Part shown: piece by piece, positions 24,549 to 53,818 of the stretch | How positions within the stretch are numbered: the first letter of the stretch is position 1 | Layout: each line of letters begins with the position of its first letter | NCBI GenBank assembly: GCA_017651185.1 | Contig: JAGCDJ010000022.1 | Span: 26,688 to 90,687, forward strand | Length of the DNA stretch: 64,000 bases | Source: Bacteroidales bacterium | GTDB lineage: Bacteria; Bacteroidota; Bacteroidia; Bacteroidales; ML635J-15 | Direction: 5' to 3' | Notes under the pieces: model-generated | Databases searched by the model: none | Told to the model about the DNA's origin: nothing | What the model saw: the letters and a program-made list of their open reading frames with translations, nothing else | Translations under genes and position numbers: made by a program

Positions 24549-24681
24549 AAAAATATCTTGGCTTTCGTTCTCATTTTCAACCTTTCGACATCTTTTTTCA
24601 ACTGCATGATGTTAAAGCGAAAAAAACAGACAAAAAAAGAAATTTTACTATCTTTGCCGAATAACAATAAGAGGTTTTATT

Positions 24682-25008
24682 ATGAAAATAAAGTGCATTC
24701 TAATGATTATTGCGTTCGCATTTGCTCTCGTTTCGTGCGAAAACGAAAACAGCACCCAGATTCCAAGACCAATAAAAAAGTTAATCAAAGAACAACGCAA
24801 AGGTTGTCTTGAATCTGTACTGAAATATAATTACCAAGGACAAACAGTGTATTATTTCGATTCATCATGTCCCGATTTTTATGAAACAATCTACGATGAA
24901 AATGGAAACATCGTATGCCAGATGGGTGGAATTTCGGGAAATGGCGACAATAAATGCCCCTGCTTCTTTGACGATGCAACATTAGTGGAAGAAATTTGGA
25001 GAAGGTAA
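24682..25008 (+). CDS. small Cys-rich lipoprotein (DUF6970-like?)
   Basis: 108 aa. MKIKCILMIIAFAFALVSCENE (lipobox) and 6 further Cys (CLESV...SSCPDF...IVCQMGGISGNGDNKCPCF). Confidence 0.65.
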   Translation: MKIKCILMIIAFAFALVSCENENSTQIPRPIKKLIKEQRKGCLESVLKYNYQGQTVYYFDSSCPDFYETIYDENGNIVCQMGGISGNGDNKCPCFFDDATLVEEIWRR

Positions 25009-25031
25009 AAAACATTAAAACTCATAAAACT

Positions 25032-25604
25032 ATGAAAAGACACATTGCATTTATACTAGCATCATTAATTATTTCAGCATTTGTATTCCAGTCATGTCAG
25101 ATTCATTGCTCTGCTTTCCCAGAATGGCTCTGCAAATATGCGCCATACGAAGAAGGCAACATCGTTACTTTCAAGAACGAAAATGATTCTGTAATAAAAT
25201 TAAAAGTTGAAAACAAGGATAAAACTGAAAAATATAGTTTTCGACAAAATTGCAAATGTACATGCGGTTGCCATTTATTTGTTGATTTGAAAAGTGAAGG
25301 AAAAGAAGATTTCCGAATGTCAATCGACTGTGAATTGGTGGTTGGAAGAGAATCTCTCGAAAATACTGAAAAAGTAGCAATGTTTTTTCAAATTGGCATG
25401 GGGAATGGAAATATGTGGGACGTAGCACAAAAATCTTTTGACAGCATAAATCCGAACGATCCTGGCAACGAGCAACTTGGAGATACTATTTCATTGCAAA
25501 ACAAAACTGACAACAAATTTTCTAGTATGACTGTTGTAAAGGGCAAAGGTCTTGCCGAGTTTTACGACAAGGAGAACAACTGCACTTGGAGACTGGTGGA
25601 ATAG
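25032..25604 (+). CDS. hypothetical lipoprotein; its C-terminus is repeat copy 1
   Basis: ORF 24996..25604. The internal ATG at 25032 gives MKRHIAFILASLIISAFVFQSCQ (lipobox). It ends ...GLAEFYDKENNCTWRLVE. Confidence 0.62.
   Translation: MKRHIAFILASLIISAFVFQSCQIHCSAFPEWLCKYAPYEEGNIVTFKNENDSVIKLKVENKDKTEKYSFRQNCKCTCGCHLFVDLKSEGKEDFRMSIDCELVVGRESLENTEKVAMFFQIGMGNGNMWDVAQKSFDSINPNDPGNEQLGDTISLQNKTDNKFSSMTVVKGKGLAEFYDKENNCTWRLVE
25560..25604 (+). repeat. direct repeat copy 1 (in-frame gene 3' end, FYDKENNCTWRLVE*)
   Basis: TTTTACGACAAGGAGAACAACTGCACTTGGAGACTGGTGGAATAG. Confidence 0.9.
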
Positions 25605-25698
25605 CACATCGAAAAAAATATAAAGTTTTTTTTGTTTCGTGATTTGTAATATAAAATTTGTAGTATATTTGTCGCATAAAAAAAAAACAATTATTATC

Positions 25699-26130
25699 AT
25701 GAAACGAATAGCATTAATATTTACAATTTTGATTTTAGTTTTTATAAATGTATCATGCAATAAGAACAAATGCGAAATTGCGGCAGTTAGATTGTGTTAT
25801 CCAGAAATAAAGGATAATGAAAATCTAAAAATTCATATAATTCGAACAGAGATGAACGATCTGGCATCGATTATTGATACCGTAAACCTTGAAGTAAATC
25901 ATAATTATTTCCCACTAGAACTCACTGGTTATGAACAACACGATGGTTATATCGGACATTTTGACAACTACATTGTATATATTGAAAATACCGAATATAG
26001 AGATACTGTTACAGACATTAAAATAGAGTGGGAAGAGCCATGCAAAGTTGCTAGTTGCCAATATAGATTTAATGGTGAACTTCACAATGGTAATGGAGGA
26101 CAGATAAACATTTATCCAAGGGTAAAATAA
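25699..26130 (+). CDS. hypothetical lipoprotein
   Basis: ORF 25639..26130 (GTG). The internal ATG at 25699 gives MKRIALIFTILILVFINVSCNKNK (lipobox). No family recognised. Confidence 0.6.
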   Translation: MKRIALIFTILILVFINVSCNKNKCEIAAVRLCYPEIKDNENLKIHIIRTEMNDLASIIDTVNLEVNHNYFPLELTGYEQHDGYIGHFDNYIVYIENTEYRDTVTDIKIEWEEPCKVASCQYRFNGELHNGNGGQINIYPRVK

Positions 26131-26190
26131 TGACAGTCTATCAGCAACTGGGTGTTTCAAAATAATCGTTGTATCACCTCGCGCAAAAAG

Positions 26191-26235
26191 TTCTACGACA
26201 TGGAGAACAACTGCACTTGGAGAATGGTGGAATAA
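26191..26235 (+). repeat. direct repeat copy 2 (intergenic relic; would read FYDMENNCTWRMVE*)
   Basis: TTCTACGACATGGAGAACAACTGCACTTGGAGAATGGTGGAATAA. About 40/45 identical to copy 1. It lies 61 nt after the stop of the preceding gene, and the upstream in-frame stretch is closed by TGA at ~26131 with no start codon. Confidence 0.85.
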
Positions 26236-26296
26236 TACACAATAATTTGTACATAACTCCGTTATCCTATTATCATTAATCAAATTTCACAATATT

Positions 26297-26887
26297 ATGA
26301 AGAAAATAATCTTATTAATATCAATTCTTGCAGTAATAATTTGTTTTACCCGTTGTGTAAATTCCGATCCTTGTAAAGGTTGTGATGAAATGCCAGAAGA
26401 AACAGATGGTACAGGGCTTATTGTAGGTCTTGGGGAAAAAACATATCACGATTCAAGTTACATGATTAACAATATACCGATATGGTATGGCTTAGTGGAT
26501 GTAGTAACATCAGAAACACATAATGCCAGCAAAATAAGACACGTAAACGGAGATTCAATAGATTTTTCCAAATACTCGGTGTTATGTATGGGTGCACAAT
26601 GTGGTGGCTGTAATATAAGGTACTTGAGAGATGTTTCCGTTGACAAGGAAGCAAAAAAATACATATATACGGTTACAATGCTTGAGTGCGGAAACTACGC
26701 AGATCTTTTAAATCCATCAGACAATATTGTCATCATTCCCAAGATTGAAGATGGTTATACCGTTGAAATTCAACTAAAGGTAGCCTATTGGATTCGCCAT
26801 AAAATTAAAAATGAACGTTTGAATTGGACATACATATTCAAGGAAGATACTGACGGAAGTTGGCTTGGAAGCGAAACAAAGCATTAA
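26297..26887 (+). CDS. hypothetical Cys-rich lipoprotein
   Basis: 196 aa. MKKIILLISILAVIICFTRCVNSDPCKGC (signal with Cys). No family recognised. Confidence 0.6.
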   Translation: MKKIILLISILAVIICFTRCVNSDPCKGCDEMPEETDGTGLIVGLGEKTYHDSSYMINNIPIWYGLVDVVTSETHNASKIRHVNGDSIDFSKYSVLCMGAQCGGCNIRYLRDVSVDKEAKKYIYTVTMLECGNYADLLNPSDNIVIIPKIEDGYTVEIQLKVAYWIRHKIKNERLNWTYIFKEDTDGSWLGSETKH

Positions 26888-26896
26888 TAACGAATA

Positions 26897-26940
26897 GTTT
26901 TAACAAGGAGAACAACTGCACTTGGAGACTGGTGGAATAG
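26897..26940 (+). repeat. direct repeat copy 3 (intergenic relic, out of frame with the preceding gene)
   Basis: GTTTTAACAAGGAGAACAACTGCACTTGGAGACTGGTGGAATAG. The last 36 nt are identical to copy 1, with a 2-nt deletion near the 5' end. It starts 10 nt after the stop at 26887. Confidence 0.88.
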
Positions 26941-26999
26941 TCATTATCCCCATCGCACAAAAAAATCAAAAAAATATTTGCCACTTCGACAAAAAGCAG

Positions 27000-27007
27000 T
27001 ACTTTTG
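27000..27007 (+). promoter_or_regulatory. Bacteroidota -7 promoter motif (TACTTTTG) for tRNA-Arg
   Basis: TAnnTTTG match 16 nt upstream of the tRNA 5' end. Confidence 0.5.
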
Positions 27008-27022
27008 CAGTCCGAAAATGAT

Positions 27023-27096
27023 GGTCCAGTAGCTCAGCTGGATAGAGCAACGGCCTTCTAAGCCGTAGGCCACAGGTTCGAATCCTGTCTGGATCA
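27023..27096 (+). tRNA. tRNA-Arg (anticodon UCU)
   Basis: Manual cloverleaf: acceptor GGTCCAG/CTGGATC, D-arm GCTC..GAGC, anticodon arm ACGGC-CTTCTAA-GCCGT, T-arm ACAGG-TTCGAAT-CCTGT, discriminator A. Confidence 0.92.
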
Positions 27097-27100
27097 CAAA

Positions 27101-29696: not shown

Positions 29697-31031
29697 ATGG
29701 TAGAAACAAACCGCATAGAATTCAAAAGCCAATTGACTGATGACCTTGATATTGAGAAGGAAGTCATTTCTTTTCTGAATTATCGGGAAGGCGGTATCAT
29801 ATATATCGGCATTGATAAAGATGGTCATCCTATTGGCGTGGACAACATTGACGCTGCCGTTCTGAAGATTAAGGACAGGATTCGCCTGAATGTCAAGCCG
29901 TCGCCTATGGGTTTGTTTGATGTTCTGGTCGAGAATATTGATGGCGTCGATGTGATTAAAATTTTCTTGGCATCGGGAACGGAAAAGCCATATTACAAAA
30001 CAAAGTACGGCATGAGTACGCGTAGTTGCTACATTCGCGTTGGAACCGCTTCGGAACCAATGCCGACGGCTATGATTGAAGACCTTTTCTCTCATAGGGT
30101 ACGCAATTCGCTGAGAAATATTCCGTCACCACGGCAAAAACTGACATTCCGCCAACTTCATATCTATTATGATTCGAAGGGCTTAGTGCTGAACAATGCA
30201 TTTGAACAGACATTGGACCTTCTTACCGATGATGGTAGATACAATTATGTAGCGTTTCTTTTGGCCGACGAAAACAATGTTTCGATAAAAGTTGCCAAAT
30301 ATTCGGGAACCGAGCGTTTTGATTTGATTTCGAACAACGAATACGGGTATTGCAGTTTGCTCAAGGCTACCGATTTGGTTCTAGATAAATTAAATACCGA
30401 AAACTACATATTCACCCGAAAAACCGAAAAATTCAGGGTTGACACACCTATGTGGGACAAGCTGGCTGTTCGTGAGGCCGTGATAAACGCCATTGTACAC
30501 AACGATTACACTAACGAGGTTGCTCCCAAGTTTGAGATTTTTTCCGATCGGCTTGAGATAACCTCATACGGAACAATTCCTATTGGCTTGACTAAAGATG
30601 AATTTTTTAGTGGGGTAAGCATTCCGCGCAACAAGGAACTGATGCGAGTTTTCCGTGATGTTGAAATGGTGGAGGCATTGGGTTCGGGCATGCCGGTTAT
30701 ACTGCGAAAGTATGGCCGTGAAGCATACGAATTTTCGGAACATTTCATTCATTTGGTAATGCCAGCGAATGAAAATGTCCCTAAAAACGAGCCTAAAAAC
30801 GAGCCTAAAAATGATACCAAAAATGATACCAAAAATGATACCAAAAATGATACCAAAAAACGGCGCGAACTCATTGTAAATCTGATAAAAAGGGACAATA
30901 ACATTTCTATAGCAGAAATTGCAAAAAAAGTAGGAGTTAAACCATTGACCATAAAGCGAGAACTTGCCGAAATGCGGCACATAGTTCAGCATGTTGGGCC
31001 AACCCGTGGCGGACATTGGGAATTTTTGTAG
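29697..31031 (+). CDS. AlbA_2 (divergent AAA / Schlafen-like) + HATPase_c_4-type ATP-binding protein with C-terminal wHTH
   Basis: 444 aa. The N-terminus ETNRIEFKSQL...EVISFLNYREGGIIYIGIDKDG is the AlbA_2 signature. The middle region AVREAVINAIVHNDY is the HATPase_c_4-like part. The C-terminus ISIAEIAKKVGVKPLTIKRELAEM is HTH-like. Confidence 0.78.
   Translation: MVETNRIEFKSQLTDDLDIEKEVISFLNYREGGIIYIGIDKDGHPIGVDNIDAAVLKIKDRIRLNVKPSPMGLFDVLVENIDGVDVIKIFLASGTEKPYYKTKYGMSTRSCYIRVGTASEPMPTAMIEDLFSHRVRNSLRNIPSPRQKLTFRQLHIYYDSKGLVLNNAFEQTLDLLTDDGRYNYVAFLLADENNVSIKVAKYSGTERFDLISNNEYGYCSLLKATDLVLDKLNTENYIFTRKTEKFRVDTPMWDKLAVREAVINAIVHNDYTNEVAPKFEIFSDRLEITSYGTIPIGLTKDEFFSGVSIPRNKELMRVFRDVEMVEALGSGMPVILRKYGREAYEFSEHFIHLVMPANENVPKNEPKNEPKNDTKNDTKNDTKNDTKKRRELIVNLIKRDNNISIAEIAKKVGVKPLTIKRELAEMRHIVQHVGPTRGGHWEFL
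30780..30857 (+). repeat. in-frame 12-bp tandem repeat (about 6.5 units) encoding PKNE-PKNE-PKND-TKND-TKND-TKND-TK
   Basis: CCTAAAAACGAG x2, CCTAAAAATGAT x1, ACCAAAAATGAT x3, and a partial ACCAAA, inside the 29697..31031 CDS. Confidence 0.92.
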
Positions 31032-43473: not shown

Positions 43474-45012
43474 ATGGCAATATTTACTGACAGATTGACA
43501 CTTAATGAGGTTGAAAAAATTCTATTTTCAGCCGAAAATATCAATATATCCAAAGAATGGATAGACCGCGTTGAGGCCTGCTATCATTTTCTGGAAAAAT
43601 TTGCTGCAGAAAAGGTCATATACGGAATCAACACAGGCTTCGGTCCTATGGCACAATGGCGCGTTGACGACAAATATCTCTCGGATTTACAATACAATAT
43701 CATCCGTAGCCATGCCACTGGCGCAGGCGAACCATTGGACGACATTTACGTAAAGTCGGCAATGATTGCCCGTCTCGGCACTGTATTGCAATGCCGTTCG
43801 GGTGTTCACCCAGATGTTGCCAGACTACTCATTTCGTTCATAAACGAAGGCATATATCCATTCATTCCTGTACACGGAAGCGTAGGCGCAAGCGGAGACC
43901 TCGTACAACTGGCACACATAGCCCTTTGCCTCATCGGTGAAGGCGAAGTCCACTACAAAGGCGAATGGCGCAAATCAGCCGACGTGATGAAGCAACTCGG
44001 ACTTACCCCATTGAAGGTTCACATTCGCGAAGGTCTGTCAATCACCAACGGCACTTCCGTTATGACGGGAATTAGCGTTGTAAACCAGATACACGCCGAA
44101 AATCTTCTTGACTGGGCAACACTCGCCGCCGTATGGATGAACGAAATCGCTTCTTCGTTCGACGACTACATGGCACTAGAGGAAAACGAATGCCGCCGCC
44201 ACGAAGGGCAGCAAGTAATCGCTCGCCGTATGCGTGAAATATCGGAAGGTTCAAAATGCATGAAAAAACGTGCTCATGAACTATACGACTATGGTCACAA
44301 GGACGTAAAAGTGTTCGAACACAAAGTTCAAGCATACTATTCGCTTCGTTGCACACCGCAGATTTTAGGTCCAATATACGACACTCTGAAATATGCCCGC
44401 AATATAATCGAAGACGAACTCAACTCGGCTTGCGACAATCCAATAGTTGACCCCGAATCGCAATACGTTTACCACGGAGGCAACTTCCATGGCGATTACA
44501 TTTCGCTTGAGGAAGATAAAGTCAAGATAGCACTTGTTCGTCTTGCTATGACATCCGAACGACAGCTCAACTACCTGTTCCACGACAGAATAAACGGCAT
44601 TTTGCCGCCATTCCTGAACCTTGGAACTCTCGGACTGAACTACGGAATGCAGGCTTGCCAGTTCACAGCAACTTCAACAACAGCAGAATGCCAGACACTC
44701 GCAATGCCGAACTATGTGCACAGCATCCCGAACAACAACGACAACCAGGACATAGTAAGCATGGGAACCAACACTGCATTGATTTGCAAGCACGTAGTTG
44801 AAAACTGCTTCCAAATTATGGCAATCCAGTATATAGCTTTAGCTCAAGCAACCGACTGCCTAAAGATAGCAGACAAACTTTGTCCTACTTCACGCAAAGT
44901 TTATGAAGAAGTACGTAAAATCGTACCTCTGTTCATCGAGGACACTCCTTTCTACAAGGACATTGCAAACATAGAAAACTATTTGAAAACTAATAAATTG
45001 AATTTGAAATAA
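43474..45012 (+). CDS. aromatic amino acid ammonia-lyase (HAL/TAL/PAL family, MIO-dependent)
   Basis: 512 aa. The MIO-forming triad sits in GSVGASGDLVQLAHIAL, with YGINTGFGPMA and NNDNQDIVSMG blocks. Context suggests tyrosine ammonia-lyase as in flexirubin clusters, but the selectivity-switch position reads S-H (IIRSHATGAG). Confidence 0.85.
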   Translation: MAIFTDRLTLNEVEKILFSAENINISKEWIDRVEACYHFLEKFAAEKVIYGINTGFGPMAQWRVDDKYLSDLQYNIIRSHATGAGEPLDDIYVKSAMIARLGTVLQCRSGVHPDVARLLISFINEGIYPFIPVHGSVGASGDLVQLAHIALCLIGEGEVHYKGEWRKSADVMKQLGLTPLKVHIREGLSITNGTSVMTGISVVNQIHAENLLDWATLAAVWMNEIASSFDDYMALEENECRRHEGQQVIARRMREISEGSKCMKKRAHELYDYGHKDVKVFEHKVQAYYSLRCTPQILGPIYDTLKYARNIIEDELNSACDNPIVDPESQYVYHGGNFHGDYISLEEDKVKIALVRLAMTSERQLNYLFHDRINGILPPFLNLGTLGLNYGMQACQFTATSTTAECQTLAMPNYVHSIPNNNDNQDIVSMGTNTALICKHVVENCFQIMAIQYIALAQATDCLKIADKLCPTSRKVYEEVRKIVPLFIEDTPFYKDIANIENYLKTNKLNLK

Positions 45013-45740
45013 TGAAATACGCTCTCATCACCGGTGCTTCTCGTGGTTTGGGCAGGGCTGTCGCCTTGCGCCTCGCCAAAGACGGGTTTGCTGTAATAAT
45101 CAACTACCAGTCGAACAAGGAAGCTGCCGAAGAAACTTTGAAACTTGTCCAGGAAGCTGGCGGAAATGGAGAACTCCTCCCCTTCGATGTTGCCGATTCG
45201 AAAGCAATCGAAACAGCATTGGAATCGTGGCAATCCACCCATCCCGACGAATATATTTCCGTATTGGTAAACAACGCAGGCATAAGAAAAGACAACCTGA
45301 TGATATTCATGCAGGAAACCGAATGGAACAATGTCGTCGACACCACACTGAACGGATTTTTCTACATCACACGCCGACTGTTGAAAGACATGATAACCCA
45401 CAGAAACGGACGTATTATAAACATGTCGTCGCTATCGGGACTAAAGGGTTTGCCAGGACAGACAAACTATTCGGCAGCAAAAGCAGCACTCATTGGTGCA
45501 ACAAAGGCATTGGCACAGGAAGTTGCAGCTAGAAAAATAACCGTCAACGCAATTGCACCAGGTTTCATTTCAACCGACATGACAAAGGAACTAAACGAGG
45601 CAGAACTAAAAAAACTCATACCGATGGGACGTTTCGGAAAACCAGAGGAAGTCGCTAGTTTGACATCGTTCCTTGCATCTGACGAAGCTGCATACATCAC
45701 AGGACAGGTAATTTCAATAAACGGAGGCTTATACACATAA
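45012..45740 (+). CDS. 3-oxoacyl-ACP reductase (SDR, FabG-like)
   Basis: ALITGASRGLGRA cofactor motif and the YSAAKAA catalytic motif. The start overlaps the previous stop (TAATG). Confidence 0.88.
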   Translation: MKYALITGASRGLGRAVALRLAKDGFAVIINYQSNKEAAEETLKLVQEAGGNGELLPFDVADSKAIETALESWQSTHPDEYISVLVNNAGIRKDNLMIFMQETEWNNVVDTTLNGFFYITRRLLKDMITHRNGRIINMSSLSGLKGLPGQTNYSAAKAALIGATKALAQEVAARKITVNAIAPGFISTDMTKELNEAELKKLIPMGRFGKPEEVASLTSFLASDEAAYITGQVISINGGLYT

Positions 45741-45758
45741 AAACAAGAAATTAATATT

Positions 45759-46985
45759 ATGACAAGAAGAGTAGTCATCACAGGCATAGGCATCTGGTCA
45801 TGCATTGGCAAGAACAAAGAAGAAGTAACCGCTTCATTGCGCGAAGGCCGTTCGGGTATCGGCATCGACCCACAACGTACAGAATACGGCTATCGTTCGC
45901 CACTGACAGGAATCGTTGAAAAGCCACAACTTAAAGGCAAACTCGACCGAAAACTTAGAATGTACCTCGCCGAAGAAGGCGAATACGCATACGTAGCCGC
46001 ACTCGAAGCATTCCAGCAGGCAAATATTGACGATGAATACCTACAGAACAACGAAGTTGGCGTAATTTTCGGCAACGATTCCTCTGCAAAGGCTGTCATC
46101 GAATCGCACGAGATGGCAATTGAGAAAAAAGACACCACCTTGATTGGTTCGGCTGCAATATTCCAGTCGATGAACTCGACTGTGACTATGAACCTGTCAA
46201 CCATTTTCCACCTCAAAGGAATAAACATGACAGTGAGCGCAGCATGCGCAAGCGGATCTCACTCAATTGGGTTAGGCGCATTGTTGATTCGTAATGGACT
46301 TCAGGACATGGTACTTTGCGGCGGTGCACAGGAAACCAATTACCTTTCGATGGGCAGTTTCGATGGCATTAGCGCATTCTCAACTCGCATCGATGAACCT
46401 ACAAAGGCCTCCCGTCCGTTCGACCGCAATCGCGACGGACTTGTTCCGAGTGGTGGCGCAGCGGCACTGGTACTCGAAGACTACGACCATGCAGTAGCTC
46501 GTGGAGCTACAATATTAGCCGAAGTTTGCGGATACGGATTCTCGTCGAATGGAGAAAGCCATATTTCGCAACCAAGCGAAGAAGGTTGCATGCGTGCAAT
46601 GTTGCGTGCCATGAAGGAAGCTGACGTAAAAGCAGAAGACATCGACTATGTAAACGCTCACGCAACATCCACCCCACAAGGCGACATGTTCGAGGCTTTG
46701 GCTTTGAAACAATTGTTTGGAAAGACACAAACGCCAATCTCTTCAACAAAATCGATGACAGGACATGAATGCTGGATGGCTGGCGCAAGCGAAATCGTTT
46801 ACTGCATACTAATGATGCAGAACGGCTTTATCGCTCCGAATATAAACTTCGAAAATCCCGACGAATATTCCGACGGACTGAACATTGTGACCAAGGCTAC
46901 AGACAAGCGACTTAACACCATACTCTCCAATTCATTCGGATTTGGAGGCACAAATTCTGCATTATTAATCAAAAAAATAAAGTAA
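45759..46985 (+). CDS. beta-ketoacyl-ACP synthase (KAS I/II type, stand-alone)
   Basis: 408 aa. Active-site Cys in VSAACASGSHSI, with His motifs VNAHATSTPQGD and GHECWMAGA (a Cys-His-His triad). Confidence 0.88.
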   Translation: MTRRVVITGIGIWSCIGKNKEEVTASLREGRSGIGIDPQRTEYGYRSPLTGIVEKPQLKGKLDRKLRMYLAEEGEYAYVAALEAFQQANIDDEYLQNNEVGVIFGNDSSAKAVIESHEMAIEKKDTTLIGSAAIFQSMNSTVTMNLSTIFHLKGINMTVSAACASGSHSIGLGALLIRNGLQDMVLCGGAQETNYLSMGSFDGISAFSTRIDEPTKASRPFDRNRDGLVPSGGAAALVLEDYDHAVARGATILAEVCGYGFSSNGESHISQPSEEGCMRAMLRAMKEADVKAEDIDYVNAHATSTPQGDMFEALALKQLFGKTQTPISSTKSMTGHECWMAGASEIVYCILMMQNGFIAPNINFENPDEYSDGLNIVTKATDKRLNTILSNSFGFGGTNSALLIKKIK

Positions 46986-46987
46986 AT

Positions 46988-47551
46988 ATGAAACAGACAT
47001 TATTGGTATTAGTTATTATTCTTACAGGAATAGCAACTGCAACAGCAAAACCAGACGTAACGGTTATCAAGGGTTCTCTCGTAGAACTTAAAAAGTCTAA
47101 CGCTAAGATTTTTGTCCGCTGGGACTACACCAACAGCACAATCGAAGGCAAGGAAGTAAACGCTTATTTGAAGGAACGTGGCGATGACTGGGTTCGCGAC
47201 TACGATGCCGAAATTGCAAGGGCTGAAAGTAACTTCAGAGAACGCCTCGACGATGAATCGAAAGATGTTCAAACGACAACCGAAGAAAGTTCTGCCGAAT
47301 ATACCATTGTTATGAAAGTTAAAGACTTTAACTACGGTATAACCGGATTGGCAGTCGCTGTAGGTTTTGGTGCTGGAGATTCTCATCTTTATGGTACAAT
47401 GGAGATTTACAAGAAAGGACAGTCGGAACCAATAGCAATCCTCGATGTTGATGGAGTTCCAGGTGCTGGATTTGGCAACGAGATTCGTCGTGTAGAGGCA
47501 TACCGCGAATTGGCAGAAAACCTTGCCAAACTTATTAAGAAAGCAAAATAG
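46988..47551 (+). CDS. secreted protein of unknown function
   Basis: 187 aa. The signal peptide is MKQTLLVLVIILTGIATATA. No catalytic motif recognised. It is embedded in the biosynthetic operon. Confidence 0.6.
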   Translation: MKQTLLVLVIILTGIATATAKPDVTVIKGSLVELKKSNAKIFVRWDYTNSTIEGKEVNAYLKERGDDWVRDYDAEIARAESNFRERLDDESKDVQTTTEESSAEYTIVMKVKDFNYGITGLAVAVGFGAGDSHLYGTMEIYKKGQSEPIAILDVDGVPGAGFGNEIRRVEAYRELAENLAKLIKKAK

Positions 47552-47558
47552 TAAACGA

Positions 47559-48659
47559 ATGGACTTATTTCCAGAATTAGAAAAAAAATATACCCGCGAA
47601 CAACTTTCCGCCCGCGAAGCACAACGGCAGGCAGAATGGATTGCTTGGGGACCAGTGGTTTTCCAGGCATCAAGGTTAATGGTGAAATTCGGCATTCTCG
47701 ACCTACTTCGCGACAGCGACAATGGAATGACGCAGGAGGAAATTGTAAAAGCTACAGGACTTTCTCCATACGCAGTAAAGGTGCTTATGGAAGCATCGCT
47801 ATGCATAGGCACTGTGCTGATTGACAAGGATACCGACAGGTTCAGCATTTCGAAAACCGGGTGGTTCCTGCTGACCGACAAACTAGTAAGGGTAAATATG
47901 GATTTCAACCACGACGTAAACTACGAAGGTTGGTTCAAACTCGAAGAGTCGCTGCTCGAAGGTAAACCCGCAGGACTGAAGCATTTCGGTGACTGGCCGA
48001 CTGTTTACGAAGGTTTGTCGCAACTGCCAGAACAAGTGCAGAAAAGTTGGTTTGGTTTCGACCACTTCTATTCCGACAACTCGTTTGCTCAGGCCTTGGA
48101 AATTGTATTTTCCAACAAGCCGAAAACTCTGCTCGATGTTGGCGGCAATACAGGACGCTGGGCTTTGCAATGCGTCGGTTACGACAATGATGTAAATGTC
48201 ACCATTATGGATTTGCCTCAGCAACTGGAAATGATGCGCAAGTTTACGGCAGGTCAAAAAGGTGCAGAACGCATCGACGGATACGGCATAAATCTGCTCG
48301 ACAAAGCAGCCGCCTTCCCTACCGACAAGCACTACGATGCAATATGGATGAGCCAGTTCCTCGACTGCTTCAGCGAAAATGAAATACTAAGCATTTTGTC
48401 AAGAGCTGCCAAAATAATGGATGACAAAAGCCGTGTTTACATTATGGAAACATTCTGGGACAGACAGAAATACGAACCTGCAGCATTTTGTCTTACAATG
48501 ACAAGCTTGTACTTCACCGCAATAGCCAACGGCAACAGCAAGATGTATCATTCAGAGGATATGGCAAGACTTGTTCGTGAAGCAGGTATGGAAGTAGAAA
48601 AAATACATGACAATTTAGGTCATGGACATAGTATAATGATTTGTAAACGTAATAAATAA
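47559..48659 (+). CDS. SAM-dependent O-methyltransferase (family-2 type with N-terminal wHTH/dimerisation domain)
   Basis: ORF 47523..48659 (TTG), with ATG at 47559 (MDLFPELEKK) preferred. SAM motif I is LLDVGGNTGRWA, and the N-terminus is FGILDLLRDSDNGMTQEEIVKATG. Confidence 0.82.
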   Translation: MDLFPELEKKYTREQLSAREAQRQAEWIAWGPVVFQASRLMVKFGILDLLRDSDNGMTQEEIVKATGLSPYAVKVLMEASLCIGTVLIDKDTDRFSISKTGWFLLTDKLVRVNMDFNHDVNYEGWFKLEESLLEGKPAGLKHFGDWPTVYEGLSQLPEQVQKSWFGFDHFYSDNSFAQALEIVFSNKPKTLLDVGGNTGRWALQCVGYDNDVNVTIMDLPQQLEMMRKFTAGQKGAERIDGYGINLLDKAAAFPTDKHYDAIWMSQFLDCFSENEILSILSRAAKIMDDKSRVYIMETFWDRQKYEPAAFCLTMTSLYFTAIANGNSKMYHSEDMARLVREAGMEVEKIHDNLGHGHSIMICKRNK

Positions 48660-48664
48660 ATTAT

Positions 48665-48907
48665 ATGGATAGAAAAGAAATTGAAGCAAAAGTAAAAGAA
48701 TTCTTGATTGAAGACCTTGAAATTGAAGAAGATAAGATAAAACCAGAAGCACGTTTAAAGGAAGATATAGGTATCGACAGTCTCGATTTCGTCGACATCG
48801 TAGTCATAGTCGAAAGAAAATTCGGCTTTAAGATTAAGACGGAAGAGATGGTTAACATAAAGACTTTCAGTCAGTTCTGCGATTATATAGAGCAAAAGAC
48901 GGCCTAA
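48665..48907 (+). CDS. acyl carrier protein
   Basis: 80 aa. The phosphopantetheine site is GIDSLDFVDIV. Confidence 0.85.
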   Translation: MDRKEIEAKVKEFLIEDLEIEEDKIKPEARLKEDIGIDSLDFVDIVVIVERKFGFKIKTEEMVNIKTFSQFCDYIEQKTA

Positions 48908-48910
48908 GTA

Positions 48911-49807
48911 ATGGCTGAAGAGCTGCAACATAACGAATGGTCTGGAAAAACCGATGGGCAACCGTGGATGCAACGTTCTCTCATCGGTATGTTCCGCGTA
49001 TTGCCAATATGGGTAATATACGGATTTATGGCTGTTTTTATTGTTCCGTTCTACATGATATTCAGCAGAAAAGGTTATAAAGCCACATACTCATTCTTCC
49101 GCAAACGCTTCCAATACGGGCGATGGAAATCATTTTGCAAGGTTTACGCAAACCATTTCCGCTTCGGACAGGTAATATTGGATAGATTTGGCGTATATGC
49201 TGGCAAGAAATACAAGTTCGACATCGAAGGACAGGATTTTTTGGATGAACTTGAAAACCATCCCGAAGGTTTTGTTCTGCTAAGCAGCCATGTTGGCAAT
49301 TACGAAATTGCTGGGTACTCATTAAAAACCAAAGCAAAAAGGTTCAATGCACTGGTATTTGCAGGAGAAACCGCTACCGTTATGGAAAATCGCAGGAGAA
49401 TACTATCGCAAAACAACATGAACATGATTCCCGTGATGGCCGACATGTCACATCTGTTCGCACTGAACACAGCAATCGACAACGGAGAAATAGTCAGTAT
49501 GCCTGCCGACCGTATTTTTGGTTCACAAAAAGCAGCCGAATGTACTTTCTTTGGAGAAACAGCAAGATTTCCATTGGGTGCCTTTGCTTTGTCGGCACAG
49601 AAAAACGTTCCTGTTCTAGCAATTTTTATAATGAAAGAAAGCACAAGGAAATATCACGCATACGTCCGGAAAATCATGTGCGACAGATCGGCAAAAATTC
49701 GCGAACAAATGAACCAAATGGCACAGAATTTTGCAGAAAACTTAGAGGAAATCGTCAGGAAATACCCGACGCAATGGTTCAACTATTTTGATTTTTGGAA
49801 ACAATGA
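48911..49807 (+). CDS. LpxL/HtrB-type (lysophospholipid/lipid A-like) acyltransferase
   Basis: 298 aa. An N-terminal TM segment and LLSSHVGNYEIAG (an Hx4E variant of the Hx4D/E motif). It occupies the position of ApeD-like acyltransferases in aryl-polyene clusters. Confidence 0.72.
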   Translation: MAEELQHNEWSGKTDGQPWMQRSLIGMFRVLPIWVIYGFMAVFIVPFYMIFSRKGYKATYSFFRKRFQYGRWKSFCKVYANHFRFGQVILDRFGVYAGKKYKFDIEGQDFLDELENHPEGFVLLSSHVGNYEIAGYSLKTKAKRFNALVFAGETATVMENRRRILSQNNMNMIPVMADMSHLFALNTAIDNGEIVSMPADRIFGSQKAAECTFFGETARFPLGAFALSAQKNVPVLAIFIMKESTRKYHAYVRKIMCDRSAKIREQMNQMAQNFAENLEEIVRKYPTQWFNYFDFWKQ

Positions 49808-50241
49808 AAGCAATCGACGAATTGACAATAGAAGAACTCATTCCACAGAGACCGCCATTCGTAATGATTGACAGGCTGGTGTCGAGCGACGATGTGTATT
49901 CGGTAACGGAACTCACTATACGTGAAGACAATCTATTTGTCGAAGATGGACGTTTTTCCGCATCGGGACTGATTGAAAACATTGCCCAAACCTGCGCCGC
50001 AAGAATAGGATACATAAACCTAAGTCATGGTCAAACTGTCAAAATAGGCGTTATTGGGTCAATAAGCAACCTGAACATTGAACGCACGCCAAAAGTTGGA
50101 GAAAAACTGACAACCACCATAAAACTATTGGAAGAAGTTTTCCAAATGACTTTGGTCGAAGCGACAACAACTTGCAACAACGAAGAAATCGTGCACGCCA
50201 ACATGAAAATTGCCTTGACTGACATTGACTCAAAAAACTGA
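49804..50241 (+). CDS. hot-dog fold 3-hydroxyacyl-ACP dehydratase (FabZ/ApeI-like)
   Basis: ORF 49795..50241 (TTG). The ATG at 49804 forms an ATGA overlap with the upstream stop. LIPQRPPFVMIDRLV matches the FabZ-like N-terminal motif. Confidence 0.75.
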   Translation: MKAIDELTIEELIPQRPPFVMIDRLVSSDDVYSVTELTIREDNLFVEDGRFSASGLIENIAQTCAARIGYINLSHGQTVKIGVIGSISNLNIERTPKVGEKLTTTIKLLEEVFQMTLVEATTTCNNEEIVHANMKIALTDIDSKN

Positions 50242-50246
50242 CAACT

Positions 50247-50681
50247 ATGGAAAAGGAAAAGATATTATCGGTAACCAAACCTTTTGAAATCCGCTTCAGC
50301 GAAGTCGATTCAATGGGTGTCGTATGGCACGGGCACTACTCGGTTTACTTCGAGGATGCAAGGGAGGAATTTGGCAAGAAATACGATTTGGGGTACCTTA
50401 TGATGTACGGCAAAGGTTTCTTCGAACCCATAGTTGACCTTTCTATAAAATACAAGAAACCATTGATTTACGGAATGAAACCTGAAATTACAATTACCTA
50501 CCGCCCTACCGATGCTGCAAAAATCGTATTCGATTACGAAATTCGCAACAGGGAAACTGGTGAAATACATGTGACAGGCCGTACAATCCAGGTTTTCATG
50601 AACAAAGACAACTACCAACTCGTACTGACGAATCCTGATTTCTACGAGGAATGGAAAAAAAGATGGGAGGTCGCAATATGA
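50247..50681 (+). CDS. 4HBT/YbgC-type acyl-CoA/ACP thioesterase
   Basis: 144 aa. IRFSEVDSMGVVWHGHYSVYFEDAREEF is the 4HBT hot-dog thioesterase signature. Confidence 0.82.
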   Translation: MEKEKILSVTKPFEIRFSEVDSMGVVWHGHYSVYFEDAREEFGKKYDLGYLMMYGKGFFEPIVDLSIKYKKPLIYGMKPEITITYRPTDAAKIVFDYEIRNRETGEIHVTGRTIQVFMNKDNYQLVLTNPDFYEEWKKRWEVAI

Positions 50682-51796
50682 TTGTAAGCATTGCAAATAA
50701 CATAACCTCGCCATTGGGCATGACCACTGCCAAAAACTACGCTGCTGTTAAAGCCGGCAAATCGGCACTTAAGCATTACGAAGGACACTGGGGATTGCCC
50801 GAAGCATTTGTCGCATCGCTAATCGACAGAAGCAAATTCACAGACACCAGATATACTATTGTTGAACAGGTTGTAATACATTCTGTTACAAAAGCATTGG
50901 AAAGTGCGAACATAGATACAGCATCACCCAGAGTATTGTTTATCTTTTCCACCACCAAAGGCAATGTATTTTTGCTCGACAAGCGTGAAAAAGGATTTCC
51001 GCAAGAGCGCGTAAGACTTGGCATGATGGCTCGACAGATTGCCTCACATTTCCACAATCCAAATGAACCTATTGTGGTTTCAAATGCTTGCATATCGGGA
51101 GTTTGCGCACAAATTGAAGCAATGAGGCATCTCGAAAGTGGAAATTACGACTATGTAATAGTTTCAGGTGTTGATATACAGTCGGCATTCATAGTGTCTG
51201 GATTCCAGTCGTTCAAGGCACTTTCGCCTGAGGAATGCAAGCCATTCGATGCAAATCGTCACGGATTGAACCTTGGAGATGCCGCTGCAACAATAATATA
51301 CACAAGAAAAGACACTGTTTCCGCAAACGAATGGTGCGCTTACCGTGGCGCCATCCGCAACGACGCAAACCACATATCTGGTCCATCACGCACAGGCGAA
51401 GGCAGTTACAGGGCACTTAAATATGTCCTCGGTGACATCGACACACAAAAAATAGCATTCGTAAACGCTCACGGAACCGCAACACCTTACAACGATGAAA
51501 TGGAGTCTATCGCCATCGACAGAGCAGGACTATCGAATGTTCCTGTCAACTCACTCAAAGGTTACTACGGACATACAATGGGCGCCGCTGGCGTACTCGA
51601 AACCATAATTTCGATGCATGCAATAGACGACAACAACATATTGGCAACCAGAGGTTTTAATACTTTGGGCGTAAGTCGTGAAATAAAAGTCACAAACCAA
51701 AACCAACCGACAGAAAAAACGGCTTTCATAAAGTTGTTGTCGGGATTCGGCGGTTGCAACGCTGCACTGCTAATGACGAAAGGAGGCCTGTTATGA
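50678..51796 (+). CDS. beta-ketoacyl synthase (KAS I/II type)
   Basis: ORF 50651..51796. The ATG at 50678 forms an ATGA overlap. Cys in SNACISGVCAQ, with His motifs VNAHGTATPYND and GHTMGAAG. Confidence 0.82.
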   Translation: MIVSIANNITSPLGMTTAKNYAAVKAGKSALKHYEGHWGLPEAFVASLIDRSKFTDTRYTIVEQVVIHSVTKALESANIDTASPRVLFIFSTTKGNVFLLDKREKGFPQERVRLGMMARQIASHFHNPNEPIVVSNACISGVCAQIEAMRHLESGNYDYVIVSGVDIQSAFIVSGFQSFKALSPEECKPFDANRHGLNLGDAAATIIYTRKDTVSANEWCAYRGAIRNDANHISGPSRTGEGSYRALKYVLGDIDTQKIAFVNAHGTATPYNDEMESIAIDRAGLSNVPVNSLKGYYGHTMGAAGVLETIISMHAIDDNNILATRGFNTLGVSREIKVTNQNQPTEKTAFIKLLSGFGGCNAALLMTKGGLL

Positions 51797-52347
51797 TGAT
51801 ACTGCATAGAGTTTACATATCACCAGACAAAGTTATCGTCAACGGAAAAGCATTGGAACTTACCGAAAAAGGTTCTGCCCTACTAACACAAATCTACCGC
51901 AGTCATATTGGCAACTATCCGAAGTTTTTCAAAATGGATACCTTGTGCAAACTGGGTTTTGTTGCATCAGAATTGCTGCTCAATGCCGAAGGAAATAGAA
52001 ATTTCGAGCCAAGAGAAGACCGCGCTGTCATACTTTTCAACAAAAGCGCATCGTTACAGGCCGATACAAACTACCAGTCCACAATACAGGATTCCGAAAA
52101 TTTCTTCCCAAGTCCAGCGGCATTCGTTTATACATTGCCAAACATTGTGACTGGCGAAATTGCTATCCGAAACAAGTATTTCGGAGAAACTTCTTTTATT
52201 GTAATCGAAGAAAACGATGAAAAACTCATAGAACAAAACCTGTCGGTTGCATTCCAAGACACCGATACAAAAAGTATAATAGGTGGTTGGCTCGACTGTA
52301 CAGACGAAGAACATTTTGAAGCGAATATATTTTTAATGGAAAAATAA
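51793..52347 (+). CDS. short KS-associated protein (truncated ketosynthase-like / partner subunit)
   Basis: ORF 51754..52347. The ATG at 51793 forms an ATGA overlap with the KS stop. It is 184 aa with no Cys-His-His triad recognisable. The call rests on position and weak KS N-terminal-like character. Confidence 0.5.
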   Translation: MMILHRVYISPDKVIVNGKALELTEKGSALLTQIYRSHIGNYPKFFKMDTLCKLGFVASELLLNAEGNRNFEPREDRAVILFNKSASLQADTNYQSTIQDSENFFPSPAAFVYTLPNIVTGEIAIRNKYFGETSFIVIEENDEKLIEQNLSVAFQDTDTKSIIGGWLDCTDEEHFEANIFLMEK

Positions 52348-52360
52348 ATTAATAAAAGTT

Positions 52361-52618
52361 ATGGACGATTTGATTTACAAACTGAAACAGGAAATTATCG
52401 AAGCATTGAACCTCGAAGACATGACTCCTGAAGACATTGATGAAAACGCATCTCTGTTTGGCGAAGGTCTTGGACTTGACTCAATTGATGCACTCGAACT
52501 CATAGTGCTGATGGAAAAGAACTACGGCATAAAACTGCAGGATCCGAACCAAGGCAAGGAAATTTTCAAGTCAGTAAAGGTGATGGCAGAGTTCATCCAA
52601 CAGAACAGGACAAAATAA
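52361..52618 (+). CDS. acyl carrier protein
   Basis: 85 aa. The phosphopantetheine site is LGLDSIDALELIV. Confidence 0.85.
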   Translation: MDDLIYKLKQEIIEALNLEDMTPEDIDENASLFGEGLGLDSIDALELIVLMEKNYGIKLQDPNQGKEIFKSVKVMAEFIQQNRTK

Positions 52619-53818
52619 ATGACTGCTCCGATTTACATAACAGGTTGCGGCGTAGTTTCGGCAATCGGACTAAACCAAAAGGAATCTTTAGAAACCTTAA
52701 TGGGCGAACATTCCGGTGTAGGTCAACTTACCTACCTTAAAACCGAACACAAGGAGTTTCCCGTAGGCGAGGTCAAACTGTCGGATGCCGAAATGCGCAA
52801 TCGTCTGGGAATAAGCGACAACGCCATAACTACGCGTACTGCACTTATGGGAATGCTTGCTCTTGACGAAGCACTGAAACAAGCAGAGATTACCCCCGAA
52901 ATGCTCCCTGAAATCGGTTTCATATCGGGAACAACAGTCGGTGGCATGGACATGAGCGAGCAATTCTACCTCGACTACATAAACAACGATGCACATAAGG
53001 AATACATTTCTGTACACGACTGCGGAAATTGCTCGGAAATGACAGCCAAGCATTTCGGCGATTTTGCATTTGTAACAACGCTTTCCACGGCTTGTTCATC
53101 GGCAGCAAACGCAATAATATTGGGAGCAAACATGATACGCTGTGGCGAGGCGGAAATTGTAATCGTTGGCGGTAGCGAATGCATAACAAAGTTCCACCTT
53201 AACGGCTTCAACTCGCTTATGATTCTCGACACAAAGCCGTGCCGTCCGTTCGATGCTACAAGAAACGGGCTCAATCTTGGTGAAGGTGCCGCATATTTGG
53301 TTCTTGAGTCGGAGAAAAGTGCAAAAAAACGCAATGCAAAAATTCAAGCAGTGCTTTCGGGATACGGCAATGCCTGCGACGCTTTCCACCAAACAGCATC
53401 GTCTCCAGACGGAGAAGGCGCATACAGAGCAATGAAGGAAGCCCTCGAAATGGCAGGAGTAAAAACAACCGAAGTTGATTACATAAACGCTCACGGCACA
53501 GGAACACCAAACAACGATGTCAGCGAAAGCCAGGCAATGATGCGTCTTTTCGGAAATAACATACCCCCTGCCTCATCGACCAAACCATTTACAGGACACA
53601 CTACGAGCGCATCGGGTTCAATAGAAGCGGTTTTCTGCATTCTTGCATTGCAAAACGGATTCCTGCCAGTCAACTTGAACTACTCACAGGCAATGGACGA
53701 TGGAATAATACCAGTTCACCAGTCTACAAAAAAAGACTTAAAGCATATTCTGTGCAATGCATTCGGCTTTGGTGGTAACGATTCTTCATTATTACTTTCA
53801 AAATTTGAGCAGAAATGA
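52619..53818 (+). CDS. beta-ketoacyl-ACP synthase II-like KS
   Basis: 399 aa. Cys in LSTACSSAANAI, with His motifs INAHGTGTPNND and GHTTSASG. Confidence 0.88.
   Translation: MTAPIYITGCGVVSAIGLNQKESLETLMGEHSGVGQLTYLKTEHKEFPVGEVKLSDAEMRNRLGISDNAITTRTALMGMLALDEALKQAEITPEMLPEIGFISGTTVGGMDMSEQFYLDYINNDAHKEYISVHDCGNCSEMTAKHFGDFAFVTTLSTACSSAANAIILGANMIRCGEAEIVIVGGSECITKFHLNGFNSLMILDTKPCRPFDATRNGLNLGEGAAYLVLESEKSAKKRNAKIQAVLSGYGNACDAFHQTASSPDGEGAYRAMKEALEMAGVKTTEVDYINAHGTGTPNNDVSESQAMMRLFGNNIPPASSTKPFTGHTTSASGSIEAVFCILALQNGFLPVNLNYSQAMDDGIIPVHQSTKKDLKHILCNAFGFGGNDSSLLLSKFEQK

Follow-up and report, generated by a model that had tools for sequence, protein, structure and literature searches.

A strain-variable lipoprotein gene array in rumen Bacteroidales whose joints originate in the 3' coding sequence of a resident gene family

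Introduction

In the orphan toxin/immunity modules found downstream of rhs and cdiA, fragments of conserved coding sequence punctuate the array and provide the homology by which a module enters or leaves the main gene. In Borrelia hermsii, vmp genes undergo gene conversion anchored at UHS and DHS blocks; the UHS is 61–62 bp long and extends 26 bp into the coding region, while the DHS is 214 bp long and contains an inverted repeat (PMC6011951). A third system, rAID-1 arrays (for recombinase-associated acquired interbacterial defence), has been described in Bacteroidales (Ross et al., bioRxiv 10.1101/471110; PMC12247911).

Here we analyse an array of lipoprotein genes within a 64 kb stretch of Bacteroidales DNA (the window). 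An earlier note, made from the sequence alone, had described four dissimilar lipoprotein genes punctuated by three copies of a direct repeat (R) next to a tRNA-Arg gene, and had proposed cassette exchange, either anchored in homology or of an integron-like or recombinase-associated kind, in an array of immunity-type genes. All comparisons were made between assemblies. The related set comprises more than 20 rumen Bacteroidales contigs (identified by L numbers), and the slot compared across contigs is that between the MocA-like gene and tRNA-Arg, the flanks of which are 88–98 % identical.

Results

Anatomy of the array

The array contains four co-directional ORFs, g1–g4 (Table 1), each starting with a signal peptide followed by a Cys, in agreement with the lipobox character already ascribed to them. 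The G+C content is 0.27–0.37 within positions 24600–26999 and 0.44–0.51 in the flanks, confirming that the region is AT-rich. The gene upstream is Gfo/Idh/MocA-like and divergently oriented. All array copies possess a start codon and leader of their own. Motifs of the −7-like type are present only ahead of g1 (TATCTTTG, 24649–24656), g3 (Table 1) and the tRNA (TACTTTTG, 27000–27007). The same arrangement was found again in three independent assemblies and is therefore not an assembly artefact.

Table 1. Coordinates of the array features within the window
Feature	Position	Strand	Description
g1	24682..25008	+	108-aa lipoprotein, DUF6970 domain; opens array
g2	25032..25604	+	190-aa F2-family lipoprotein; N- and C-termini conserved, middle hypervariable
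R copy 1	25560..25604	+	Coding; last 14 codons of g2 plus stop
Leader A	25605..25698	+	Upstream of g3; −7-like motif TATATTTG at 25664–25671
g3	25699..26130	+	143-aa F3-family lipoprotein
Imperfect 18/19-nt direct repeat, left copy	26173..26190	+	TATCACCTCGCGCAAAAA
R copy 2 (R')	26191..26235	+	Non-coding 3' stub of F2 gene, joined to g3 trailer
Leader B	26236..26296	+	Upstream of g4
g4	26297..26887	+	196-aa F4-family lipoprotein
R copy 3	26897..26940	+	Non-coding stub travelling with g4
Imperfect direct repeat, right copy	26945..26963	+	TATCCCCATCGCACAAAAA; within region upstream of tRNA-Arg
tRNA-Arg(TCT)	27023..27097	+	Right border of array

The three direct copies of R, a repeat of about 45 nt, are real: the 36-mer AAGGAGAACAACTGCACTTGGAGACTGGTGGAATAG matches at 25569–25604 (no mismatches), 26200–26235 (three) and 26905–26940 (none), with a chance expectation of 0.00 in 100 shuffles. 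A repeat search of the window lengthens the copies to a 51-nt family with 90 % and 80 % identity. Copy 1 is, as previously read, the in-frame C-terminus of g2 (ending ...FYDKENNCTWRLVE and stop), and in the g2 model it encodes a terminal beta-hairpin with a pLDDT of about 90. The earlier note had placed copies 2 and 3 out of frame or behind stops with no start codon. Copy 3 begins 9 nt past the g4 stop, lies out of frame and has lost 2 nt (AGTTTTA--AC versus AGTTTTACGAC). Copy 2 begins 60 nt past the g3 stop and, to correct the earlier reading, is in the g3 frame but behind two stops, TAA TGA. In L016, L017 and L026 an F2 gene is intact and ends in frame at the equivalent R before leader B. 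The junction after g4, in which AATAGTTTTAAC is followed directly by AAGGAG, is identical after g4 homologues at another locus (L016, L017, L019) and in L026.

The left copy of the 18/19-nt direct repeat borders a segment that is absent here from L004, L005, L006, L009 and L026, and in the alignment of the window with L006 both copies of this repeat align to one L006 sequence. A decayed R in the g3 trailer was considered and dismissed as not significant (1201 of 2000 shuffles scored as well).

No significant fold was detected in R, with or without flanks, on either strand (z-scores +0.6 to −1.6 against shuffles), which agrees with the earlier remark that it has no obvious hairpin, and the repeat search of the window revealed no inverted pair confined to a single copy. 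A role as terminator was rejected, as both hairpin and T-run are absent from R. A role as RNA element was likewise rejected, Rfam (E-value mode) having matched the tRNA only and R having no fold. Coding R shows no excess constraint at the DNA level: at third codon positions R diverges by 0.21 and the stretch just upstream by 0.27, indicating that R in F2 genes evolves as ordinary coding sequence.

The lipoprotein families

The array genes are small Cys-rich lipoproteins of an uncultured rumen Bacteroidales lineage, and F2 is the backbone of the array. F2 is lineage-restricted and comprises 24 protein clusters, all from Bacteroidales metagenome-assembled genomes or metagenomes, and R is the in-frame end of every F2 protein. 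F2 genes have a conserved 5' end (leader and signal peptide) and a conserved 3' end of about 85 nt, the last 45 nt of which are R. The middle of g2 (25209–25436) is replaced in L005 between flanks about 98 % identical. There are 23 representative clusters for g3 (E ≤ 0.001), which recurs in arrays of both main loci; an additional match to a 5404-aa protein (P0041) was judged spurious, as this is a eukaryote-like FN3-repeat protein and the score sums 28 weak stretches. F4, to which g4 belongs, comprises 13 clusters. The homologue search with g1 returned only two clusters, near-identical; g1 matches Pfam PF22311 (DUF6970; E = 1.9e-24), is missing at the same locus in L008 and L009, and has a DUF6970 counterpart adjoining F4 genes at an unrelated locus, L027.

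The gene bodies are indeed dissimilar. Hidden homology between F2, F3 and F4 was sought by profile–profile alignment (hhalign), which aligned the signal peptides only, and the homologous gene bodies that had been named as an alternative were not detectable. The C-termini of F4 (IFKEDSDGSWKLESE) and F2 (EFYDKENNCTWRLVE) show a marginal resemblance (p 0.01–0.06) that is absent for the window's own g4.

An immunity role for the array proteins, as suggested in the earlier note, is unsupported. NCBIfam and PADLOC gave nothing significant and Pfam only the DUF6970 match on g1, so that none yielded a usable defence or immunity annotation. PDB sequence and profile searches were empty. The models of g2 and g4 are both all-beta (pLDDT 77 and 83, respectively), and neither has a PDB structural match at E ≤ 0.001; the best Foldseek match of g4, the NigD-like 3qwn, is insignificant (E 0.04, TM 0.15).

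Variation between strains and loci

Throughout the related contigs, R marks the joints between three unrelated lipoprotein families: F2, F3 (g3-like) and F4 (g4-like). Cross-strain alignment of the slot confirmed the expected variability, revealing cassette gain, loss and re-ordering; array content differs between strains with 94–98 % identical flanks. The window, L001 and L003 carry g1-g2.R-g3-R'-g4-R. L005 and L006 carry g2.R-g3; in L005 this follows the 3' end of g1, and the L006 contig starts inside g2. The remaining arrangements are g4'-R-g3 (L004), R''-gX.R (L008), R''-gX.R-g3 (L009) and g1-F2.R-g4-R-F4-R-gX.R-g3 (L026). The segment R-B-g4-R, with R at both ends, occupies different positions in the window and L026, and the target of the window's R' holds no pre-existing R in L005 or L006. 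Related arrays are also strewn with other gene stubs, such as the 5' signal-peptide stubs of a Por_Secre_tail gene in L015.

Arrays are present at a minimum of four chromosomal loci, only one of which adjoins tRNA-Arg; the other sites include OmpA..rpsA and two further loci. The link to the tRNA drawn in the earlier note is not supported, and we regard their proximity as incidental: the array is located 5' of tRNA-Arg, equivalent arrays occur at loci without any tRNA, and the 3' 24-mer of the tRNA occurs once in the window with up to three mismatches allowed. With the tRNA 3' end single and no integrase, a tRNA-integrated island was rejected. Origin from a mobile element was also rejected, the array having no match among viral contigs, phage records or plasmids.

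Composition of the joints

The left and right partners of R re-assort freely across loci. Leader A follows R in L004, L005, L006, L009 and L026, with differing genes on the left. Across R, gX on the left is paired with right-hand partners A and C; g4 with C, F and B'; g4' with A and D; F2(180) with B, D, D' and E; and F2(189) with D, B' and G. Leader B and the first ~50 nt of signal-peptide codons are conserved in L008, L009, L010, L016, L017 and L026, and this block precedes g4, other F4 genes and the F2-type gene gX. The same slot, opened by leader and signal peptide and closed by R, is occupied by an F2-type gene in L008 and by the unrelated g4 in the window. Alignment of g4 with gX shows that leader B and ~50 nt of the ORF are shared, that the bodies are unalignable and that homology returns at R. 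This, with the re-assorting partners, supports the homology-anchored form of cassette exchange.

Some copies of R are chimeric. The stub at position 2785 of L026 has a left half like that of g4-linked R and a right half like that of B'-linked coding R (L016 6263), and the g4'-linked stub has window-type R in L004 but, in L016, R of the type found with F2(180) in L010. Crossovers thus appear to have taken place at varying positions in or beside R. F4 proteins are 34–50 % identical, yet their stubs agree at 29–35 of 36 positions and are 81–100 % identical to coding R; such similarity suggests that stubs are being renewed. The junction blocks of L026 (R, leader and signal-peptide codons, about 120–150 nt) are near-identical direct repeats and thus an ample substrate for RecA-type recombination. 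R is not the sole joint, as g3, and F4 in L010 and L027, moved without it.

Discussion

Proposed explanation and its rivals

Most likely, the R joints are sites at which lipoprotein genes are gained, lost and re-ordered by ordinary homologous recombination rather than by a dedicated integron-like machine. The locus is probably a hypervariable lipoprotein cassette array evolving by homologous recombination or gene conversion between conserved blocks. The anchors would be the junction blocks, and exchange may occur within the array, between loci and with DNA of other strains, so that arrays expand, contract and change order and gene middles are swapped. The F4 ancestor, including g4, sits in an F2-type slot extending from the signal-peptide codons to the last ~14 codons, where it presumably replaced an F2 body. 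R would thereby have been left as a non-coding 3' stub, which now accompanies F4 genes and continues to recombine with other copies of R. In the window, copy 3 would be such an F4-type stub. Copy 2 would be the 3' stub left by an F2 gene formerly located ahead of the R-leader B-g4-R block; a single illegitimate junction that placed this block downstream of g3 could have created the stub. RecA-type recombination is presumably the agent, and the array may be kept variable by diversifying selection acting on surface or periplasmic lipoproteins. Some observations sit less easily with this explanation. The 45-nt R is by itself a short substrate for homologous recombination, and some cassettes moved without R. 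On their left side the non-coding stubs all end within a span of about 20 nt (−13 to +7 relative to AAGGAG), although the synonymous sites of F2 genes stay equally conserved over another ~40 nt upstream; such clustering is not obviously expected of random illegitimate junctions. As few as two founding events may underlie the cluster.

The clustered left ends, with the sharp ends of R, could also mean that R serves a dedicated site-specific recombinase, encoded at some other place in the genome, as its attachment or crossover site; the enzyme would excise leader-gene-R circles and insert them at other R sites. The layout is cassette-like (gene followed by a ~45-nt site, co-directional, AT-rich), R-B-g4-R is bounded by R and placed differently in the window and L026, and the rAID-1 arrays have repetitive intergenic motifs (10.1101/471110). 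However, no recombinase, including Phage_integrase, is present among the 30 ORFs of at least 230 aa in the window, nor within about 5 kb of any of the more than 20 related arrays. R lacks an inverted repeat or hairpin, the apparent crossover positions vary by joint, coding R diverges like ordinary coding sequence and the target of the window's R' has no R in L005 and L006. We consider such an enzyme quite unlikely. It is also rather unlikely that R-bounded leader-lipoprotein gene-R units are true mobile cassettes, shuffled within and between several chromosomal arrays in an active and programmed way by an unlinked recombinase or by targeted gene conversion. Were this so, rumen Bacteroidales would possess a changeable set of surface or periplasmic lipoproteins, which might act in immunity or phage evasion, and the arrays would be a chromosomal counterpart, without an integrase, of integron or rAID arrays, or of vmp switching in Borrelia.

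Passive debris would require no continuing role for R in rearrangement: an old tandem array of F2 paralogues would have been partly overwritten by indels, with R copies as leftovers. This would fit the origin of R as the 3' end of a paralogous family, the presence of other gene stubs, the stability of the window arrangement in three assemblies and the stub junctions after F4 genes, which, with a common CGRATA motif, resemble one ancient event. The earlier note had pictured this case as a 36-mer confined to intact 3' ends at an invariant locus, but other genomes contain non-coding R stubs and the locus is variable even between strains with 94–98 % identical flanks. Equally old neutral debris, moreover, would be unrecognisable where the F4 proteins have diverged so far, whereas the stubs remain close to coding R. 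Together with the chimeric copies, the combinatorial partners and an incongruence between R and left-hand gene phylogenies suggested by the present small sample, this makes debris an unlikely explanation. Retention of R as a cis-acting element for the downstream unit, either a regulator site or a signal for RNA processing or stability, seems very unlikely. Every R is followed, always within 60–430 nt, by a leader and gene or by the tRNA, and the stubs retain a 30-nt core, AACAACTGCACTTGGAGACTGGTGGAATAR, in which the near-palindrome CAACTGCACTTG can be read. Set against this, there is no conserved RNA structure or Rfam match, the distance and sequence from R to the next start vary widely, F4 and g3 genes also occur without R upstream or downstream, and the coding copies show no excess synonymous conservation.

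Comparison with known systems

Recombination between conserved blocks, as favoured above, would formally resemble the UHS/DHS exchange of B. hermsii. In both systems two non-homologous lipoprotein families share one slot, the body being exchanged by recombination at homology blocks, and the 5' block consists of leader and first codons while the 3' block lies at or beyond the gene end; here a 5' block over the start codon and signal peptide and a 3' block flank the non-homologous bodies of g4 and gX. Unlike vmp genes, each copy here comes with a start and a leader of its own, and the array shows no sign of silent archives. Judging by the sequence, the array appears to have no single expression site and shows no sign of programmed switching. 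R is 45 nt long and lacks the inverted repeat of the 214-bp DHS, and the array is chromosomal, among housekeeping genes, whereas that of Borrelia is on linear plasmids.

The array fails on the defining features of both rAID-1 arrays and integrons, and the integron-like or recombinase-associated mechanism of the earlier note is not supported. It shares with rAID-1 the Bacteroidales host, co-directional short genes (about 100–300 codons), inter-gene repeats and strain-variable content, as well as low G+C content (≤41 % over at least two co-directional downstream genes in rAID-1; 0.27–0.37 over four genes here). However, the 5' XerD-like tyrosine recombinase that defines rAID-1 is absent; the gene upstream is the divergently oriented Gfo/Idh/MocA-like one. 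The proteins have no match to known immunity families of the T6SS or polymorphic-toxin kind, the repeat comes from the 3' coding sequence of a single resident gene family, and the arrays lie at several housekeeping loci. In integrons and CALINs, as here, each gene has behind it a short site associated with recombination, the order of cassettes is variable and some ORFs extend into the site, but in R both the imperfect palindrome and the folded bottom strand of attC are lacking, IntI and attI are absent, and crossover points do not look fixed. Islands targeted to a tRNA are marked by an integrase and, at their opposite border, by a direct repeat of the tRNA 3' end; neither was found here. The likeness to rhs and cdiA orphan modules lies in an array punctuated by pieces of conserved coding sequence. 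In those modules the conserved piece is on the 5' side of a variable toxin domain, whereas the piece seen here is the very 3' terminus of a lipoprotein gene, and toxin domains are absent.

Gut and rumen Bacteroidales are known for strain-variable small-gene arrays (rAID-1), and this locus is a clean sequence-level case of array turnover in which the joints are visible and come from the coding end of a resident family. Turnover here needs no adjacent recombinase. If the proteins are immunity or surface-variation factors, the locus would be a tractable model for turnover of a defence or surface repertoire by plain homologous recombination, and search criteria based on recombinases would overlook part of such gene space.

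The repeat and its origin

The array of four small lipoprotein genes (g1-g4) is lower in GC than its flanks (27-37% vs 44-51%), and all four products are cysteine-rich and carry a signal peptide and Cys. The direct repeat R, alignable over about 45-51 nt, is genuine, as the earlier note had it: its 36-nt core is present in three copies of the same orientation, against a chance expectation of 0 in the window.

Features of the lipoprotein array and related stretches (window coordinates unless a contig is named)
Feature	Position	Remarks
g1	24682-25008	carries DUF6970
g2	25032-25604	family F2
g2, middle replaced in L005	25209-25436	
g3	25699-26130	family F3
g4	26297-26887	family F4
R core, copy 1	25569-25604	0 mismatches; in-frame end of g2, ...FYDKENNCTWRLVE, stop
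R core, copy 2	26200-26235	3 mismatches; 60 nt beyond g3 stop, in g3 frame but behind TAA TGA
R core, copy 3	26905-26940	0 mismatches; 9 nt beyond g4 stop; out of frame, 2-nt deletion
tRNA-Arg(TCT)	27023-27097	end of array
In-frame stub, g3	26131-26235	..YPRVK, two stops, QSIS..FYDMENNCTWRMVE, stop
In-frame stub, g4'	L016 4220-4297	..SKEKW, one stop, PLNYIINTTGYKYNKENNCIWRLVE, stop
AlbA_2 protein gene	29697-31031	444 aa
Lyase/ketoacyl-synthase cluster	43474-54843	
Por_Secre_tail 5' stubs	L015 4640-5000, 5544-5871	intergenic; MKRLVLLGFILASTICMAQT..
Por_Secre_tail gene	L010 2014-2376	intact, 120 aa
Tandem repeats 5' of rpsA	L015 7078-7671; L010 5571-5995	
F4 and DUF6970 genes	L027 623-2078	

Among 5.8 billion proteins the F2 family has 24 clusters, every one of which comes from Bacteroidales MAGs or from rumen/gut metagenomes. 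Its proteins have a hypervariable middle between two conserved termini, an N-terminal signal peptide (...CSAFPEWLCKYAPYEEG...) and the C-terminal FSDMVIVKGKGLxEFYDKENNCTWRLVE with its stop; R thus corresponds to the final 14 codons of an F2 gene, and the segment it encodes forms the terminal beta-hairpin of the AlphaFold model (pLDDT 77). Comparison with L005, a related rumen contig, reveals that the middle of g2 alone is replaced, both gene ends being 91-99% identical. The L005 middle resembles the type in F2 proteins of other contigs, e.g. P0014, and g2 is thus a gene-conversion-like mosaic.

Two non-coding R copies (stubs) share the frame of the preceding gene, g3 in the window and the F4-type gene g4' in L016. 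The shared frame could be fortuitous or a relic of earlier fusions.

Array content and chromosomal sites

More than 20 related contigs came to light through exact-word scans and protein look-ups. Three mutually unalignable lipoprotein families recur in their arrays, F2, F3 and F4 (the last with several subtypes), and the arrays occupy at least four places on the chromosome: MocA-like gene to tRNA-Arg (window, L004-6, L008-9, L026), OmpA/PD40 to rpsA (L007, L010, L015-19), and, each with a single F2 gene, CN-hydrolase to SHOCT/EF-G (L011-14) and glyoxalase to Fer4 (L020-25). Adjacency to the tRNA is thus incidental; no duplication of the tRNA-Arg 3' end was found, and the part suggested for this gene is not supported.

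Arrays between the MocA-like gene and tRNA-Arg (R', R'', copies of R; gX, F2-type gene)
Locus	Order	Remarks
Window	g1-g2.R-g3-R'-g4-R	three independent assemblies
L005, L006	g2.R-g3	no R or g4 after g3; L005 adds 3' end of g1, L006 starts inside g2
L004	g4'-R-g3	
L008	R''-gX.R	
L009	R''-gX.R-g3	
L026	g1-F2.R-g4-R-F4-R-gX.R-g3	

Flanks of this site are 88-98% identical between contigs. Relative to L006, the window has about 775 nt extra, consisting of R', leader B (the segment ahead of g4), g4 and R. On either side of this extra DNA stands an imperfect 18/19-nt direct repeat of sequence that lies 5' of the tRNA. A second strain-variable spot may lie after TsaE, where the window encodes a protein with Schlafen AlbA_2 and HATPase_c_4 domains and L008 has a 445-aa ORF of different sequence.

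L015 contains 5' stubs of a Por_Secre_tail gene, reduced to signal-peptide codons, so R is not the sole gene stub in arrays. Upstream of rpsA, short tandem repeats of two types occur in a long intergenic stretch, as runs of ~10-nt units (AGGCTAACAG / CAGTCTGACGG) and several ~45-nt units (gaaacggcg..agccattcaaacagcgcagcga), with copy numbers that vary between contigs. In L027, where the genomic surroundings are unrelated, two F4-type genes adjoin a DUF6970 gene and no R is present; the association of F4 with DUF6970 therefore does not depend on the F2/R arrays. Elsewhere in the window, a gene cluster resembles loci for the synthesis of pigments of the aryl-polyene or flexirubin type; it encodes four proteins like ketoacyl synthases, together with an aromatic amino-acid lyase, a short-chain reductase, an O-methyltransferase and a lipid-A-type acyltransferase.

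R as a joint in a probable exchange of cassettes

Tabulation of the neighbours of every R shows that left-right pairing is combinatorial. Among the right-hand segments (A to G), gX is followed by leader A (with g3) or trailer C (with the tRNA), g4 by C, F or B', g4' by A or D, F2(180) by B, D, D' or E, and F2(189) by D, B' or G. The genes g4 and gX have leader B in common, together with about 50 nt of signal-peptide codons; their bodies are unalignable, and homology returns at R. The homology-anchored exchange of cassettes proposed in the earlier note is supported by this shared slot, the combinatorial partners of R and the varying content of the contigs.

Such exchange is reasonably likely to be driven by homologous recombination. 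In the simplest account, conserved junction blocks would undergo homologous recombination and gene conversion, and stubs would arise from occasional illegitimate joins. In L026, each junction block (R, leader and signal-peptide codons) measures about 120-150 nt, and the blocks are near-identical direct repeats of one another. Two points are awkward for this account: 45 nt is a short substrate where R alone is shared, and stub left ends cluster within about 20 nt, which may reflect just two founding events. That the array is passive debris is unlikely, since stubs are 29-35/36 identical behind F4 proteins only 34-50% identical; exchange with other copies of R thus renews them, and they are not decaying.

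An unlinked site-specific system is distinctly improbable. The L026 stub behind g4 joins a g4-linked left half to a B'-linked right half, and the stub linked to g4' is of window type in L004 and of the L010 F2(180) type in L016; crossovers therefore fell at differing points in or beside R. Nor is an integron-like or recombinase-associated array, as once suggested, supported: the 30 window ORFs of at least 230 aa are housekeeping or otherwise non-recombinase, no integrase was found within about 5 kb of any related locus, R has no attC-like structure, and there were no phage, plasmid or viral matches. There is only a slim chance that R acts as a cis-regulatory element; no folding was found, an Rfam search matched no family, and coding R is not more conserved than the conserved codons just upstream (third-codon-position value 0.21 vs 0.27).

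Comparison with known systems and possible function

The array resembles rAID-1 in its form, low GC and repeats, but lacks the defining recombinase and immunity homologues, and it does not qualify as an integron. Closest in logic is the UHS/DHS exchange of non-homologous Vsp and Vlp lipoproteins in Borrelia hermsii (PMC6011951), although nothing in the arrays points to silent archives or to programmed switching.

The predicted structures of g2 and g4 are all-beta, and comparison with PDB structures gave no significant neighbour. The best structural match of g4, a NigD-like 'immunity' protein, is not evidence (E 0.04, TM 0.15); as PADLOC, NCBIfam and PDB sequence searches were also empty, the immunity role once proposed is unsupported. 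The hypervariable F2 middle and the turnover of the arrays suggest diversifying selection on these exported lipoproteins.
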